A DNA stretch of 32,000 nt from Paraferrimonas sp. SM1919. GTDB lineage: Bacteria; Pseudomonadota; Gammaproteobacteria; Enterobacterales; Shewanellaceae. The notes below the pieces were generated by a model. The model searched no databases. It was not told the origin of the DNA and saw nothing but the letters and a program-made list of their open reading frames with translations. Positions within the stretch are counted from its first letter, which is position 1, and the number at the start of each line of letters is the position of its first letter. The translations under genes and the position numbers were made by a program. Location of the stretch: assembly GCF_010993985.1 (NCBI RefSeq), contig NZ_WINH01000005.1, positions 34,721 to 66,720 of the forward strand, given 5' to 3'. Of this stretch, positions 14,483 through 25,192 are shown in pieces.

Positions 14483-14971
14483 TTAGTCAAGTTTTTTAGT
14501 TGGGTTTTTAATCACACCTTTTTGTAGGATTAAAATATTGGGATAGGTTATCACTTCTTCGCCTCTTTTTATGAGGACATGGAATAAGGTAATTTCTTCA
14601 ATAACACCCGAAATATCATCATCTTTATCAAGCACTTTAATTTTATCCCCCACACGGTAAGGAAAACCAAAGAAAATAATTAAACTGGCGGTTATGTTGC
14701 TAAGAATGGACCACTGTGCAAATAGGGCCACGCCAATCACCGCGAAAACAGATGATAAGAATATCGAAATTTGTGAATATTCCACTCCTGAAATGTTTGC
14801 CATCAAAATTAGAAAAAAAGCCAGAATGGCAAATGTTATCGTCTTTGAGATATATTTAATCCGATACGGGCTTACGCCTTTACCTTGTCCATACTTATTA
14901 ATTGCGATACGAGAAAATCGCACGCAAAAATACATTATTACTAAAGTTAAGATAACTAAGGACATCTTCAT
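14483..14971 (-). CDS. Small mechanosensitive-channel (MscS-like) family membrane protein
   Basis: 162 aa with three predicted TM helices followed by an MscS-type beta-domain signature (FPYRVGDKIKV...ISGVIEEITLFHVLIKRGEEVITYPN). It is much shorter than canonical MscS. Confidence 0.65.
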   Translation of the reverse strand: MKMSLVILTLVIMYFCVRFSRIAINKYGQGKGVSPYRIKYISKTITFAILAFFLILMANISGVEYSQISIFLSSVFAVIGVALFAQWSILSNITASLIIFFGFPYRVGDKIKVLDKDDDISGVIEEITLFHVLIKRGEEVITYPNILILQKGVIKNPTKKLD

Positions 14972-15456
14972 TGTTTATTGAGCTCTTTTTTTAGTTCATC
15001 AAATTTGTCATGTAACCTCATTAACTCAAGCTCTAACTTTAAATTTACTTCAAAGGTTGCTTTTTGTTCTAATCTGTCTTTGGCAACTTGACGGTTTTGC
15101 GACATCATTATGATAGGAGCCTGAAATGCCGCCAGACTGGAAAGGCCTAAATTTAGTAAAATAAATGGGTAGGGATCAAATGCCGCGTCGCCAATTAACC
15201 ATAGGGTATTGACCACCATCCAACATACAATGAAGGTAAAAAATATCCCTATGAATGCCCATGAACCACCAAATGCAGCTATTTTGTCTGCCACTAATTG
15301 ACCAAATGTGAGTGTTTCATGGAAGCTTTCATTGATATTTTTAGTTAGCGTTTTGTTTTCAGCAATACTGTCAATTACGTTCTTTTCGCCACTACTGAGA
15401 CTGCCATAGGGTTGACCTAGCAAGGCTTTGGCTAAATTTTCAAAATACTTTTTCAT
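14968..15456 (-). CDS. DUF1003 family membrane protein
   Basis: 162 aa with two TM helices and the characteristic DPYPFILLNLGLSSLAAFQAPIIMMSQNRQ..KDR motif, followed by a C-terminal coiled coil. The stop overlaps the downstream MscS-like start by 4 nt (ATGA). Confidence 0.7.
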   Translation of the reverse strand: MKKYFENLAKALLGQPYGSLSSGEKNVIDSIAENKTLTKNINESFHETLTFGQLVADKIAAFGGSWAFIGIFFTFIVCWMVVNTLWLIGDAAFDPYPFILLNLGLSSLAAFQAPIIMMSQNRQVAKDRLEQKATFEVNLKLELELMRLHDKFDELKKELNKQ

Positions 15457-17659: not shown

Positions 17660-18523
17660 CTAATTTTTAATCATTTCTATATTAACACCGTGATAATTCC
17701 CCAACACTGCATTATGACTTTGATCACTTCGAGCCTGTCTAGTTATGGGTTTTAATTGGTTTAATGGATAAATCTGGCAGTGCTGATCACTTATGATCAC
17801 CATGGGTAAGGCCGCAGTTTTGGTTAAACGACTTTTATCTGCAAACCAAATATTACTCACCGGCTGGATACTGACAGGGCGGCGATATCTTAATTTTGAT
17901 TCTTTAACGGATACAACCTTGTTGAGCAATTGCTTTATATAAAGTTGCTCTGAAGTTTGTGCCTCTGCGTTTAGTTTTGCAACTAATTGCTGTTTATTGA
18001 CTTTTTGTAAATTGGCTTTATTTACCCAATGGAATCTAACTTTCTGTACATCTTTTTCAATTAAGTGTATTTGTCGATATAGGTGCAAAGTCATTACCCC
18101 GGGAAGGGCATCATGGAGGGCGTCAAAACGAGTGAATCTGTCATGATAATTATCGGTAACAAACACTTTTATTTGATTTTTAACAGCATTGATTCCCTCG
18201 ACTAATGCGTCAAGTTGATATTTTCTTGCTTGTTGATGTGAAAATCTAATGCAACCAGGATATCTTCTGGCGTACTTACCTGATAGCCCATCAATCAATG
18301 TTAAATCTTGATAAGCCTGACTGATTTTTTTATCTGCACCTTGGTCGAGATAACTTTGTTTTATGGCGGTTTGTGACTCTATATTTGTGATTAGGTCATT
18401 TTCCTTATGTTTAAAAAACAGCTCCGTAAACTGACTCTGATGGGGTTGAGCCTGTTCAATGATATCGCCAAATTGCTTGAGATCAGAAGTTAATTGATTG
18501 ATTAATTTGACGAGTTTAGTCAT
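17660..18523 (-). CDS. tus: DNA replication terminus site-binding protein Tus
   Basis: 287 aa from ATG 18523. By-eye alignment to E. coli Tus gives: RFDALHDALPGVMTLHLYRQI...VRFHWVNK vs [21 protein letters not shown]...LRFGWANK. It also gives KLRYRRPVSIQPVSNIWF vs KLKIKRPVKVQPIARVWY. The size is similar (E. coli Tus is 309 aa). I preferred the internal start because it overlaps the upstream gene stop (ATGACTAA) and matches the Tus N-terminus better than the 16-residue extension. Confidence 0.8.
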   Translation of the reverse strand: MTKLVKLINQLTSDLKQFGDIIEQAQPHQSQFTELFFKHKENDLITNIESQTAIKQSYLDQGADKKISQAYQDLTLIDGLSGKYARRYPGCIRFSHQQARKYQLDALVEGINAVKNQIKVFVTDNYHDRFTRFDALHDALPGVMTLHLYRQIHLIEKDVQKVRFHWVNKANLQKVNKQQLVAKLNAEAQTSEQLYIKQLLNKVVSVKESKLRYRRPVSIQPVSNIWFADKSRLTKTAALPMVIISDQHCQIYPLNQLKPITRQARSDQSHNAVLGNYHGVNIEMIKN

Positions 18524-19502
18524 TTTTCTTACCTTGAATGAACTGCTGTATAAGTTGTTGGTTTTGTTCATTTTGTTGACTTAGGCTGGTAATCAATAAT
18601 TGTTGGGCCTGGTTTTCATTTTTGAGTGATGATATTTGTTGGTTTTCGATACGAAGTGATGCATCAGCTTGTTTAAGTTGCTGCGTAAGGTCTTGTAATT
18701 TCTCATTAGCTATTGAATGGTTTAGCGTTAAGTCTTGGATGACTTGCTGTTGTTGAGTTAATTGTTCTTCGAGCTGGTTAACTTTGTCATTAAGATTGTC
18801 ATTGGTTAATTGCAGTTGATGATTATTTTGGTTACTTAAGGATTGTTGCTGTTGCATTTGTTCTATCTTCTGCGATGCCAGATTCAGTTGTTGCAAGTGG
18901 TTTTGTTGTTGCTGTTCAGCATAAGCTTGCAATTGTTGCCTTTCCCGTAAACTTTGCTCGCTAAGGTGTTGCAATTGCCCTTGCATTTGTACGTTGTCTT
19001 GCTGCAATTGTTTATTATGTTGCTGCTGTTGTTGTTGCTTGTCTTGGTGATGCTCCAATTTCAGTTGGAGCTCTTTCAGTTGTGTCTTTAAGTGTTGATT
19101 CTGTTCATTTAAATCTTCAACTTTGGCAGTGGTATGTTCCAAAGCAATCCTTTTCTGTTCGAGTTCAAGTTCACACCCTGCGAGTTTAGCGGTTGTTTTT
19201 GTCACTTCGTCTTGTAAATGCAGTTGTAACTGATGGGCCTCTTGCTCTAATCGTTGCCATTTGAACTGTGCATCTTTTTGTAATTGTTGGTACAAAGATT
19301 CAATCACTTGAATTAGCCCATGGGGTAGGCTAGTGGGTTGTTCATGTTGGTGACGCCACTGCTTAAGCATTGGCGCGATAGTGCTTTTGCTGCCACCGCC
19401 CAACGCATCTCTAACCTTATCTACTGTAGGATTTTCTCCCTTAGCAGCCAGTTCTTCAGCAGCCTGTTTTACCTGTTCGTAAACAATCCCTATTCTTGCC
19501 AT
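18516..19502 (-). CDS. KfrA_N-type DNA-binding protein with a long glutamine-rich coiled coil
   Basis: 328 aa. The N-terminal 50 residues (VKQAAEELAAKGENPTVDKVRDALGGGSKSTIAPMLKQWR) match the plasmid KfrA N-terminal DNA-binding domain pattern (GExPT..KVR..LGGGS..TI...L..WR). The remainder is heptad-like and rich in Q, L, E and N, including a QQQQQQ run. Confidence 0.7.
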   Translation of the reverse strand: MARIGIVYEQVKQAAEELAAKGENPTVDKVRDALGGGSKSTIAPMLKQWRHQHEQPTSLPHGLIQVIESLYQQLQKDAQFKWQRLEQEAHQLQLHLQDEVTKTTAKLAGCELELEQKRIALEHTTAKVEDLNEQNQHLKTQLKELQLKLEHHQDKQQQQQQHNKQLQQDNVQMQGQLQHLSEQSLRERQQLQAYAEQQQQNHLQQLNLASQKIEQMQQQQSLSNQNNHQLQLTNDNLNDKVNQLEEQLTQQQQVIQDLTLNHSIANEKLQDLTQQLKQADASLRIENQQISSLKNENQAQQLLITSLSQQNEQNQQLIQQFIQGKKND

Positions 19503-19588
19503 GGTAATTAACTCACTATTTGTAACGTATTATGTAATATGTAATTATTTTAATTTAAGTGGTCTAATTATACAAATATTTATCATTT

Positions 19589-19622
19589 ATTAGTTTCGAT
19601 AATGTATATTATCGAAATTTAA
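19589..19622. other. Candidate tyrosine-recombinase core site (lox/dif-like, 13-8-13)
   Basis: Sequence is ATTAGTTTCGATA-ATGTATAT-TATCGAAATTTAA. A perfect inverted repeat TTTCGATAAT / ATTATCGAAA lies at 19594-19603 and 19608-19617. The 14 nt ATAATGTATATTAT (19599-19612) are identical to the centre of E. coli dif. The spacer matches 6 of 8 positions of the loxP spacer ATGTATGC. The site lies about 40-70 bp upstream of the Cre-like recombinase gene. Confidence 0.55.
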
Positions 19623-19662
19623 TGAGTTAAAATATGCCGATATAGCTGTACTGTTCGGTACA

Positions 19663-20697
19663 GTGACGAATAGGGATTTTGGCACTCAAATGGCGAAACA
19701 ATCACAACCAGCAATCATGTCTGTTTTTACACAATCACAGCAGCAACTGCCGCAAGCCAGCGCTGTATATCCTGAAGAGCAACAATTGTCAGTAGCCGCA
19801 AAGGAATTGATGAGTCATGGAACTTCTGCAAACACTCGTAAGAGTTACCAAAGTGCTATTAAGCAATTTATTGCTTGGGGTGGCCGTTTACCCAGCAACA
19901 AAATCCAAATTCTTAATTACATTTCAGAGCAATCTCAAAGTTTGAATACTCGCAGTTTAGATCTCCATCTAACGGCTATCAGTCAGTGGCATTATTTGCA
20001 GGAATTCTCCGACCCTGTCCGTTCACCTGAAGTAAAAAAAATAATGCAAGGACTCAGACGGGTTCACGGTAAGCCAAAGCAACAAGCTAAAGCCCTTAGC
20101 GTGGCCGAATTAAAATTGATCTGTGGTTCCTTAGATAATGAAAATTTATCTGCGATCAGAGATAGGGCGATGATTTTAGTTGGCTTCGTTGGCGCGTTTA
20201 GACGAAGTGAGTTAACCGCTATTGATTTTAACGATCTGACGTTCACTGAAGAAGGTTTGCTGATCAAAATCAAAAGAAGCAAAACCGATCAATTTTCCCA
20301 AGGAAGCACTAAAGCTATCCCATATTCTCCTTTTGAGGATTTATGCCCTGTTCGAGCTATGCAAGGGTGGCTAGAGCACGGGAATATTGTCAGTGGAGCG
20401 GTGTTTAGAGGGATAAACCGTTGGCAGCAGCTTTCTGCCAATGCCATCTCAGACACGAGCGTTAACCAAATCTTAAAAAATCGTGCCAAAGCGGCTGGCA
20501 TAAAAGATCATCAATTGCTCAGTGGTCATAGCCTACGTCGTGGCATGGCTACAGAATCTTCAAAAGTCGGAGTGGAATTCAATTTAATTAAGAAGCAGGG
20601 TGGTTGGCGTAGTGATCAGACCCTGTGGCAATACATTGATGAGGGTAAAGCCTTTACTGATAATGCTGCTCACTTGCTATATCAAGCATTTAAGTAA
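19663..20697 (+). CDS. Tyrosine site-specific recombinase, Cre-like
   Basis: 344 aa from GTG 19663; ATG 19690 is an alternative start. Catalytic signature: Arg in GAFRRSEL, Lys in KRSKTDQ, HxxR in GHSLRRG, Trp in GGW and the Tyr nucleophile in WQYI. The C-terminal pattern GHS.R.G.A...G.....I...GGW.......YI parallels Cre (GHSARVGAARDMARAGVSIPEIMQAGGWTNVNIVMNYI). Confidence 0.85.
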   Translation: MTNRDFGTQMAKQSQPAIMSVFTQSQQQLPQASAVYPEEQQLSVAAKELMSHGTSANTRKSYQSAIKQFIAWGGRLPSNKIQILNYISEQSQSLNTRSLDLHLTAISQWHYLQEFSDPVRSPEVKKIMQGLRRVHGKPKQQAKALSVAELKLICGSLDNENLSAIRDRAMILVGFVGAFRRSELTAIDFNDLTFTEEGLLIKIKRSKTDQFSQGSTKAIPYSPFEDLCPVRAMQGWLEHGNIVSGAVFRGINRWQQLSANAISDTSVNQILKNRAKAAGIKDHQLLSGHSLRRGMATESSKVGVEFNLIKKQGGWRSDQTLWQYIDEGKAFTDNAAHLLYQAFK

Positions 20698-23534: not shown

Positions 23535-24782
23535 TTAGCAATTAATTTTGGGAAGCTGTTGCCAGGAACTTAAATAGCTAGGTGATAAAAAATGACGCTG
23601 CATTTGCCAAGGTCGTTCTCCTACCATGCGGCTAGGGGTAATGGTGTGACGACCGTATTTAGCATTAATTTCATCTACGCAATTCATTAATTGTGGGCAA
23701 TTAGGGTACTGGTTAAACATGTCTTTTTGATAATACTGACTGCTCTCTAATAGGGTTGCTCCTACACCACATTTGTAAAACGGTATGCCTGCTTGATAGA
23801 GATATTTTGCACAGGCTGCAATACTCTGACTGATAACTCGGTCATCATCGAAACCATAGGGGAATTCAATTATTTTACTGCGCCTAACATAATTTTCCTT
23901 ATGGGGTGAGCTATGGGCAAAAAGCAGCATTTTTTTAATTAATAATCTTTGCTTGCGTGCTTTTGTGCATACTTCGACCCCATGACTGACCAATGCTTGG
24001 GTCAGTTCATCAATATTGCTGACGCCCTGACCAAAAGTGCGCGTTGCAAAAATTTGCTGATTTTCCGCTGGCAATTGATCCCATTTTAATACCGCTTGAC
24101 CTTTTAGCTCTAACACGGTGCGAGCTAAAGGCCTACCAAAAGCTCGTCTGATACGCTGAGGTGATTGCTCAGCTAATTGCCAAGCACTATGGATATCCAT
24201 CAGTGCCAATTTCTTAGCCAGTCTACGACCTACGCCCCATACTTGCTCGACTTTCATCTGCTTTAAAATCTGACTACGGCTGATTTCGCCATCAATTACC
24301 GCGACACCACTAAAACCTGATAGCTTTTTAGCCGCATGATTTGCGGCTTTCGCCAAAGTTAAAGTTGGGCCAAACCCAACACCTACCGGTAGCTTCAACT
24401 GTTGCCATATCTGTTTACGTATAGTTAATCCTAATTTGGCAAAACTATGTTGGTATCCTTGATAGTGCTGAAAGCACTCATCAATAGAATACACATACTG
24501 GTTATCACAAAAACTTTGGCAAATGTTCATCATGCGCCGGCTAAGCTCCCCATAAAGGGCATAGTTACTGGAGCGGATCACTACGTTATGACTGGCTAAG
24601 AGCTCCCTGAGCTTAAAGTAGGGCTCAAATTTAGGAATATTAAACTTTCTTGCCAGCGGACAAACCGCACAAATGCAGCCATCGTTATTGGTTAATACCA
24701 CAACAGGTTGGCTGCGTAAGCTAGGATCGAGGCTTTTCTCACAGGAGGCATAAAAACTAATGCCATCAATTAAGGCATACAC
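23535..24782 (-). CDS. umuC: DNA polymerase V catalytic subunit UmuC (Y-family)
   Basis: 415 aa. The N-terminus MYALIDGISFYASCE parallels E. coli UmuC MFALCDVNAFYASCE, and the SIDECF motif is present. It overlaps the umuD end by 13 nt. Confidence 0.92.
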   Translation of the reverse strand: MYALIDGISFYASCEKSLDPSLRSQPVVVLTNNDGCICAVCPLARKFNIPKFEPYFKLRELLASHNVVIRSSNYALYGELSRRMMNICQSFCDNQYVYSIDECFQHYQGYQHSFAKLGLTIRKQIWQQLKLPVGVGFGPTLTLAKAANHAAKKLSGFSGVAVIDGEISRSQILKQMKVEQVWGVGRRLAKKLALMDIHSAWQLAEQSPQRIRRAFGRPLARTVLELKGQAVLKWDQLPAENQQIFATRTFGQGVSNIDELTQALVSHGVEVCTKARKQRLLIKKMLLFAHSSPHKENYVRRSKIIEFPYGFDDDRVISQSIAACAKYLYQAGIPFYKCGVGATLLESSQYYQKDMFNQYPNCPQLMNCVDEINAKYGRHTITPSRMVGERPWQMQRHFLSPSYLSSWQQLPKINC

Positions 24783-25192
24783 GCTTGGATCACCTCTGTT
24801 AATCGTTGCCCAGCATGTATTCTGATTGACGTGCTAATGACACCTTCAATTTGAAATTCATCCCATTCATTGATAGCAACAGGGCCATACTTAGGGTGCG
24901 CAGAACATAATTGCCGTCGTTGTTTATCCAATAGCTTACACACAAAGCTGCCATTATAGTTAGCAACAATAATATCCATATGGACAGCGGTAATGGCTCT
25001 ATCGACTAATAATAAATCACCAGAATAAATGCCAACCCCTTGCATGCTGTCACCATTGGCAATACCAATAAAGGTAGCATTAGGGTGTTCAATTAACAGT
25101 TTATCAAGGGATAAACCGAGTTCTAAATATTGCGCCGCTGGAGATTCAAATCCCGTGATCCCAGCTTCAGCATATAGGGGAATAACCTGCAT
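24770..25192 (-). CDS. umuD: DNA polymerase V subunit UmuD (LexA-like S24 peptidase)
   Basis: 140 aa. It has GFESPAAQY (E. coli GFPSPAADY), the catalytic Ser in GDSM and a Lys in FVCKLL. An SOS box lies upstream. Confidence 0.9.
   Translation of the reverse strand: MQVIPLYAEAGITGFESPAAQYLELGLSLDKLLIEHPNATFIGIANGDSMQGVGIYSGDLLLVDRAITAVHMDIIVANYNGSFVCKLLDKQRRQLCSAHPKYGPVAINEWDEFQIEGVISTSIRIHAGQRLTEVIQACMP

Follow-up and report, generated by a model that had tools for sequence, protein, structure and literature searches.

A probable TnpS/TnpT/rst recombination module with an overlapping tus gene in Paraferrimonas sp. SM1919

Why does the gene for a replication fork-arrest protein, tus, overlap the end of a gene for a coiled-coil protein with a KfrA-like DNA-binding head? 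This arrangement is found in a stretch of 32,000 nucleotides from Paraferrimonas sp. SM1919 (contig NZ_WINH01000005.1, positions 34,721 to 66,720; hereafter the window), where an open reading frame (ORF) encoding 328 amino acids lies upstream of tus on the minus strand. We propose that the product of this ORF is very probably a helper protein of TnpT type, belonging to a TnpS/TnpT/rst module such as serves Tn3 transposons of the Tn4651 family as a heteromeric resolvase. Resolvases of the Tn4651 type consist of an rst spacer of ~190 bp with two palindromes (a core and a TnpT site), a Cre-like recombinase, TnpS, and a divergently encoded helper, TnpT (PMC7157771, PMC4337579, PMC4619425, PMC3606827). 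Judged by protein homology, site architecture and catalytic residues, the module in the window appears to be complete and intact, and what would be called a "KfrA-like DNA-binding protein" and a generic "integrase" are here re-annotated as parts of it. A module of this kind is known and it is the attachment of tus that is unusual; our working view is that tus is a passenger of the recombination module and not one of its components.

The 328-residue protein and its divergent recombinase

The following features of the window are concerned:
18516..19502, minus strand: tnpT-like gene (ATG start, 328 amino acids), with a KfrA_N head and a Q/L-rich helical tail
19170..19481, minus strand: region coding for the KfrA_N domain (residues 8-111, Pfam envelope)
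18519..19319, minus strand: region coding for the predicted coiled-coil tail (residues 62-328, from composition and periodicity)
19690..20697, plus strand: tnpS-like gene for a Cre-type tyrosine recombinase of 335 amino acids, with its start at ATG 19690 (the mechanical ORF runs from GTG 19663)

The original prediction, made before any database search, described the ORF as a plasmid-type KfrA protein in which an N-terminal DNA-binding domain is followed by a long coiled coil rich in Q, L, E and N. Both structural parts of this description stand. A profile search placed PF11740 (KfrA_N) on residues 8-111 (E 3.3e-24; 86 bits, cut-off 26 bits), and the 267 residues of the tail (62-328) contain 27% Q, 16% L, 8% E, 8% N and no proline, with a top hydrophobic periodicity of 3.5 residues that was matched by 45 of 2000 shuffles. 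A coiled-coil tail is well supported by these properties of the sequence. Comparison with coiled-coil segments of tropomyosin, SMC and Rad50 gave weak matches only, and no solved structure similar to the protein was found at E up to 1. Glutamine runs such as QQQQQQ are present in the tail, and the aligned TnpT homologues are, by eye and without quantification, rich in Ala, Glu, Arg and Gln.

It is the assignment to the plasmid KfrA proteins that does not hold, as by sequence comparison the protein groups with TnpT helpers. In BLAST comparisons TnpT proteins give 70-91 bits with its N-terminal region, compared with 35-55 bits for plasmid KfrAs linked to tus, and the protein carries the TnpT signature GSKSTIAPxLKxW where the tus-linked KfrAs, which form a clade of their own, have GSY[ST]TI instead. 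Identity to TnpT-type proteins is 40-57% across the N-terminal 75-115 amino acids (39% over the first 84 amino acids for Tn4651 TnpT from pWW0), the signature GGGSKSTIAPMLKQW in the KfrA_N region is common to TnpT proteins, and full-length alignment is possible with seven TnpT-type proteins, a histidine in the middle of the protein (H179, in an FEHYQ motif) being kept in alignment with TnpTs. TnpT has been described as a protein without homologues (PMC7157771, PMC4337579). Contrary to that description we find that TnpT belongs to Pfam KfrA_N, XACb0010 of TnXax1, the protein named TnpT (PMC4337579), itself matching with E 2.4e-27. That a KfrA-like signature was noticed in the window protein is explained by this, because TnpT proteins fall within the KfrA_N family.

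The partner that the original prediction overlooked is the divergent tnpS-like gene. Its product matches Phage_integrase with E 9e-15 and is 33% identical to TnpS of Tn4651 (pWW0) over 298 amino acids (E 5e-53); among PDB entries Cre matches it best, and the two align at the catalytic residues R, K, H-x-x-R, W and Y. Over its full length the window recombinase is 43-47% identical to recombinases paired with TnpT/KfrA_N proteins elsewhere, including those of Tn3-type mercury transposons, and only 21% identical to the int of IncC. The 328-residue protein has few homologues in a large protein collection; each is preceded by a divergent recombinase of ~340 amino acids and none has tus downstream. 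The two proteins have their best matches among annotated plasmids in adjoining genes, in Tn3-family mercury transposons (Shewanella ANA-3, Alteromonas Te101) and also on pND6-1 and pADP-1. A tblastn search gave only one match in pADP-1, an IncP-1 plasmid, and this match is at a TnpT-type gene beside a site-specific integrase.

The window shares with Tn4651 (pWW0), TnXax1 and Tn5041-type mercury transposons a divergent pair formed by a Cre-like recombinase and a helper with a KfrA_N head and helical tail, the helper having 328 amino acids as compared with 332-351 in known TnpS/TnpT systems, and a spacer of ~187 nt in which a core palindrome and helper-site repeats follow the same layout (PMC4337579). 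It departs from those systems in the overlap of tus with the end of tnpT and in the unusually glutamine-rich tail. The KfrAs of the IncP-1 plasmids RK2 and R751 and of the IncU plasmid RA3 belong to the same Pfam family and have the same head and coiled-coil build (PMC7821693, PMC7783346), and both these proteins of broad-host-range plasmids and the window protein are likely to autoregulate by binding to repeats in their own promoters. The characterised KfrAs, however, are encoded together with kfrB/kfrC in operons for plasmid stability and have partition proteins as interaction partners (PMC7783346), whereas the window protein has a recombinase partner and a chromosomal context, its neighbours being tnpS, tus, a fieF-type efflux gene and acetolactate synthase (ilvIH-type) genes, not kfrB/kfrC or korAB/incC.

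The rst-like spacer and its recurrence in other genomes

Between the two divergent genes lie the following elements:
19503..19689, no strand assigned: resolution site resembling rst, together with the divergent promoter region (187 nt with ATG 19690 taken as the tnpS start)
19594..19617, no strand assigned: perfect palindrome TTTCGATAAT-GTAT-ATTATCGAAA (10+4+10; GATAA-N6-TTATC), the predicted TnpS core (crossover) site
19522..19545, no strand assigned: repeats ATTACAT-ATTACAT-AATACGTTAC (minus-strand reading), 20-43 nt upstream of the tnpT ATG, the predicted TnpT accessory site and operator
19646..19663, no strand assigned: CTGTAC-N6-GTACAG with the conserved TGTACCG, ~28 nt upstream of the tnpS ATG

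The start of tnpS was placed at ATG 19690, which leaves the spacer of 187 nt, because of its spacing from TGTACCG; the published rst spacers are of 188 and 193 bp (PMC4337579), and in the published model an IRa/IRb palindrome is bound by TnpT (PMC4337579, PMC4619425). Seven TnpS/TnpT loci, TnXax1 among them, have in the same orientation TGTACCG near tnpS, a CGATAA-N6-TTATCG core and ATTACGT...AATACGTTAC repeats, the repeats lying 20-45 nt upstream of the tnpT start, and the Tn4651 spacer resembles this three-element layout. TGTACCG or a near variant stands at the equivalent position in pND6-1, ANA-3, Te101 and locus L001, and AATACGTTAC and its variants are at the same position in the TnXax1, ANA-3, Te101 and pND6-1 elements, in L001 and L002, and in 31 of 77 loci of the genome survey described below. 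The core 16-mer of the window is identical in two Undibacterium loci (L035, L091).

By homology with the known resolvases, TnpS would, like Cre, cut and rejoin DNA at the GATAA-N6-TTATC palindrome. The N-terminal head of TnpT would bind the ATTACAT/AATACGTTAC repeats that lie shortly before the start of tnpT, and the protein would dimerise or oligomerise through its coiled-coil tail, in this way assisting synapsis and resolution and probably repressing the divergent promoters.

How general the pairing is was examined by scanning a TnpT alignment against one genome per species, which gave at least 536 confirmed hits, of which the best 80 loci (L014-L093) were analysed. A divergent TnpS is kept in 69 of the 72 loci that have enough upstream sequence, and an exact GATAA-N6-TTATC is present no more than 330 nt upstream of tnpT in 63 of 77 loci, always with a spacer of 6 nt, where the chance expectation is ~3e-4 per locus. 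TnpT lengths cluster at 340-360 amino acids, the gene 3' of tnpT is variable, and a Tus homologue was found at none of the 80 loci. Because the divergent TnpS and the core recur across loci and tus is in none of them, the conserved partner of the TnpT family is, on these comparisons, TnpS with rst, and tus is a lineage-specific addition. A Tn3 transposase was found within 6 kb in only 4 of the 80 loci, the other 76 being without a substantial match.

Three further observations concern the module and its spacer. Divergent tnpS/tnpT pairs accompanied by an rst core have a very wide distribution among the genomes of gamma- and betaproteobacteria, as the number of species-level hits illustrates; such pairs may be recombination modules that have been orphaned or domesticated, or may belong to very large transposons. 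A 14-mer, ATAATGTATATTAT (window 19597-19610; L160 5758-5771), is common to the rst core and E. coli dif (GGTGCGCATAATGTATATTATGTTAAAT), the 6-nt centre included; the outer arms differ, the window site being a perfect palindrome, and as other loci have unrelated spacers the resemblance may be due to chance. Finally, TTTGTAAC at ~19520 was at first taken for a Ter-like site and was rejected when it proved to belong to the conserved TnpT-site motif AATACGTTAC.

Tus, its overlap with tnpT and the plasmid tus-kfrA blocks

Two features describe the other side of the locus:
17660..18523, minus strand: tus, encoding a divergent replication terminus site-binding protein of 287 amino acids (Pfam Ter, E 3.3e-37)
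18516..18523, minus strand: tnpT/tus overlap of 8 nt, ATGACTAA, the tus start lying inside the last tnpT codons and stop

The ATG of tus occupies 18523-18521 and the TAA of tnpT 18518-18516, with AAGG 8 nt upstream of the tus start, and a scan of the junction for a terminator-like site found none between the genes. The annotated 287-amino-acid 'DNA replication terminus site-binding protein' of Paraferrimonas sp. SM1919, which begins MTKLVKL, is 100% identical. The operon with tus that was originally predicted thus has the overlap of the genes in its favour, and from this geometry we infer co-transcription and translational coupling. We propose that tus was captured at the 3' end of tnpT and therefore would probably be expressed from the rst promoter and be translationally coupled to tnpT, having lost the arrangement seen with most plasmid-type tus genes, in which the gene has its own promoter with adjacent candidate Ter-like repeats.

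Pfam Ter matches Tus with 128.6 bits (cut-off 22 bits), and the protein falls under both NCBIfam equivalog cut-offs (211 vs 323 bits for NF002810, 77 vs 178 bits for the other). Against E. coli Tus it gives E 6e-13, across residues 79-244 only, and it can be aligned to residues 85-262 of the E. coli protein (1ECR) with the RFxxxHxxLPG segment conserved; the segment that carries F140, H144 and G149 in E. coli Tus reads RFDALHDALPG in the window protein. The two are of the same fold family at low identity. The E. coli gene lies between rstB and fumC without a KfrA_N neighbour; it is monocistronic and its promoter contains TerB, whereas the window gene has no such site and rides on tnpT.

The Tus family is small: clustering at 50% identity divides its members among 1.84 billion representatives into 205 clusters, and the window protein is a singleton whose best relatives are 35-40% identical, and a genome scan using this protein alone as the query returned zero relatives. 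Its nearest relatives are in plasmid-like contexts, with Rep3 or RPA initiators, ParAB/KorB, toxin-antitoxin and tra genes. RPA/Rep3 initiator genes are 0-5 kb from tus in three of the closest (L094 1-352, L157 420-851, L159 2092-2991), and the gene order in L157 and L159 is tus ... kfrA ... traF (traH), like that of IncC; these three loci suggest an old shared plasmid backbone block, with Tus acting near the origin.

It had been claimed that a coiled-coil DNA-binding protein encoded together with Tus is not a described arrangement. This is overstated: the tnpT-then-tus overlap is new in our survey, but maps of IncC plasmids list 'int, yacC, ter and kfrA' (PMC8169936). In the IncC plasmid pSX2_LC6 a gap of 149 nt separates tus from a downstream gene for a KfrA_N coiled-coil protein, and a Tus homologue is present in ~2,800 sequenced plasmids, mostly conjugative and of IncC type. 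We also scanned metagenomes, using a smaller set of Tus sequences as the 38-sequence alignment was too diverse, and found a same-strand KfrA_N gene downstream of tus in 16 of the 42 loci with enough downstream sequence, usually 88-250 nt away. These 16 loci span several lineages, their Tus proteins being 51-67% and their KfrAs 28-54% identical. The tus-linked kfrA is not always intact, because in pP99-018 (IncC; L010 4517-5558) what appears to be a frameshift divides the gene after tus into two overlapping ORFs, and the gene table does not list it.

The adjacency of KfrA_N and tus genes, which the original prediction proposed to survey, is conserved for the Pfam family, but with the opposite gene order and in a different KfrA_N clade. 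The ter(tus)-kfrA block of IncC (IncA/C2) and related MOBH/MPF_F plasmids resembles the window in its same-strand neighbouring genes for Tus and a KfrA_N coiled-coil protein and in a tyrosine recombinase gene nearby. It differs in that tus comes before kfrA with a gap of 88-250 nt and no overlap, whereas in the window tnpT comes before tus and overlaps it; the recombinase is only 21-25% and Tus only 33-35% identical, the KfrA is of a different clade, and an inverted pair of the motif TTGCATGATGGTCTAA stands next to tus which the window lacks.

One possibility, and that originally favoured, is that a plasmid-type KfrA cytoskeletal or DNA-bridging protein is co-translated with Tus and works with it as a partner, a regulator or an organiser of the terminus. 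The KfrA_N domain with its long helical tail, the 8-nt overlap and the conservation of tus-then-KfrA_N in IncC-type plasmids and their relatives (pSX2_LC6, the 16 metagenomic loci, L157 and L159; PMC8169936) are consistent with this, as is the fact that a linkage to tus arose at least twice at the level of the family. We consider it unlikely, since the window protein is in the TnpT clade and not in the tus-linked KfrA clade, the conserved partner is TnpS with rst and the locus is without kfrB/kfrC or the partition-gene context of characterised KfrAs (PMC7783346, PMC7821693). Moreover, a role as Tus partner or terminus organiser finds no support in the window, which contains neither an E. coli-type nor a plasmid-type Ter-like motif and no sign change in skew, as set out below.

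A wider proposal is that KfrA_N/coiled-coil proteins are genuine working partners of plasmid-type Tus and that in Paraferrimonas the TnpT-like protein couples fork arrest to TnpS recombination at rst. It can be entertained because the linkage arose at least twice (tus-kfrA across IncC-related plasmids and tnpT-tus here), and the TnpT-like protein could, for example, hold the fork at, or recruit Tus to, a replicon-dimer resolution site; we judge it improbable. By the tnpT-tus fusion a recombination site would gain control over a fork-arrest protein. If the fusion is functional, replication termination would be tied to site-specific recombination outside the XerCD/dif model, and the locus would be an entry point to an uncharacterised clade of plasmid Tus proteins. 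If tus is only a passenger, as our working view has it, the locus would be what is left of a mobile element, ordinary but for the cargo gene that it carries.

Ter sites, the terminus question and mobile-element context

Within the 32-kb window, matches to the E. coli-type Ter consensus occur at chance frequency and there is no extended consensus. Upstream of plasmid-type tus genes we find a strictly conserved motif of ~16 nt, TTGCATGATGGTCTAA, which occurs immediately upstream of the gene as an oppositely oriented pair ~200 bp apart in 13 of 18 Tus lineages that are only ~30-60% identical in protein sequence. Copies of TTGCATGATGGTCTAA are located at:
L004 7627 and 7895
L005 7701 and 7900
L011 3228 and 3435
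L096 4649, 4779, 4939 and 5944
L110 903 and 1085
L119 3555 and 3757
L126 3735 and 3933
L130 1483 and 1677, with others elsewhere

The motif bears a loose resemblance to E. coli Ter (ATGTTGTAACTAA vs ATGATGGTCTAA), and it may serve the plasmid-type Tus clade as its Ter site or as a small fork trap. In the window TTGCATGATGGTCTAA is absent at up to one mismatch; as a positive control of the motif search, E. coli TerB was recovered. Third-position (GC3) skew shows the plus strand to be G-rich on both sides of the locus, with no change of sign. A terminus at the locus had been suggested by cumulative GC skew and by a switch of gene orientation near 14.4 kb; in view of the GC3 skew these signals were rejected as evidence for one.

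These results also bear on the idea of a plasmid-derived 'terminus cassette', in which fork arrest by Tus and the resolution of dimers or multimers by TnpS/TnpT/rst would act on the host replicon in the manner of E. coli Tus/Ter and XerCD/dif. All three genes are intact, tyrosine recombinase genes are 1-6 kb from tus in IncC, an Aeromonas plasmid, IncHI1, L096 and several metagenomic loci, and the rst core has the 14-mer ATAATGTATATTAT in common with dif. Nevertheless such a cassette is highly unlikely, as there is no Ter-like site nearby, unlike the inverted motif pair of most plasmid-type tus genes, the skew gives no terminus signal, and rst spacers vary freely, a dif-like spacer being present in only 2 of 63 other loci so that the resemblance may be fortuitous.

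Several observations weigh against the interpretation that we prefer, of a TnpT-type module with tus as its passenger. The tight overlap with tus was unseen at any other TnpT locus surveyed, and genes that overlap more often have products with linked functions. KfrA_N proteins of the other clade are recurrently linked to tus, which makes a real functional connection between TnpT and Tus possible, though we give it a small chance. There is no Tn3-family transposase anywhere in the 32-kb window and no convincing terminal inverted or direct repeats flank 17.6-20.9 kb, and the module, which unlike the Tn4651 family lies on a chromosome among housekeeping genes, is not demonstrably part of a transposon. 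The missing transposase is weak evidence, because in pWW0 the tnpA of Tn4651 is ~48 kb from tnpS/tnpT. The tnpT-tus fusion is so far a single case, unique to Paraferrimonas sp. SM1919 (0/80 TnpT loci and none of ~70 tus loci).

Could the locus instead be inert, a fragment left by the decay of a Tn4651-family transposon or of a plasmid, which abuts tus by chance and whose tnpT-like gene has no current function? The absence of a transposase from the window, the plasmid-like contexts of the closest Tus relatives and the GC content of tus, at 0.365 the lowest of the local genes (window 0.413), would fit such a history. We doubt it, since the three ORFs are full length with their catalytic and lock-pocket residues conserved, the rst palindrome is perfect, and a precise coding overlap of 8 nt fits maintained co-expression better than decay.

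Recent transfer was considered from composition, and as tnpT, tnpS and tus are within the spread of their neighbours this is not diagnostic. Genes elsewhere in the window are chromosomal in type. The neighbouring FieF has no other match above 47% identity, Paraferrimonas sp. SM1919 being without close relatives in the collections, and a look-up of the exact FieF sequence returned no entry; synteny with Ferrimonas around fieF, tried as a guide to insertion boundaries, was uninformative as the context is different.

Two minor observations concern the surroundings. The genes umuD-umuC (error-prone polymerase V) lie at 23535-25192 on the minus strand, 3 kb from the module and past the acetolactate synthase genes, and pSX2_LC6 likewise has umuDC just upstream of tus (L005 5695-7370), which is probably a coincidence. 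At the plus-to-minus orientation switch there are two tandem overlapping ORFs of 162 amino acids each (14483-14971 and 14968-15456, minus strand), with a GC content of 0.35-0.37.

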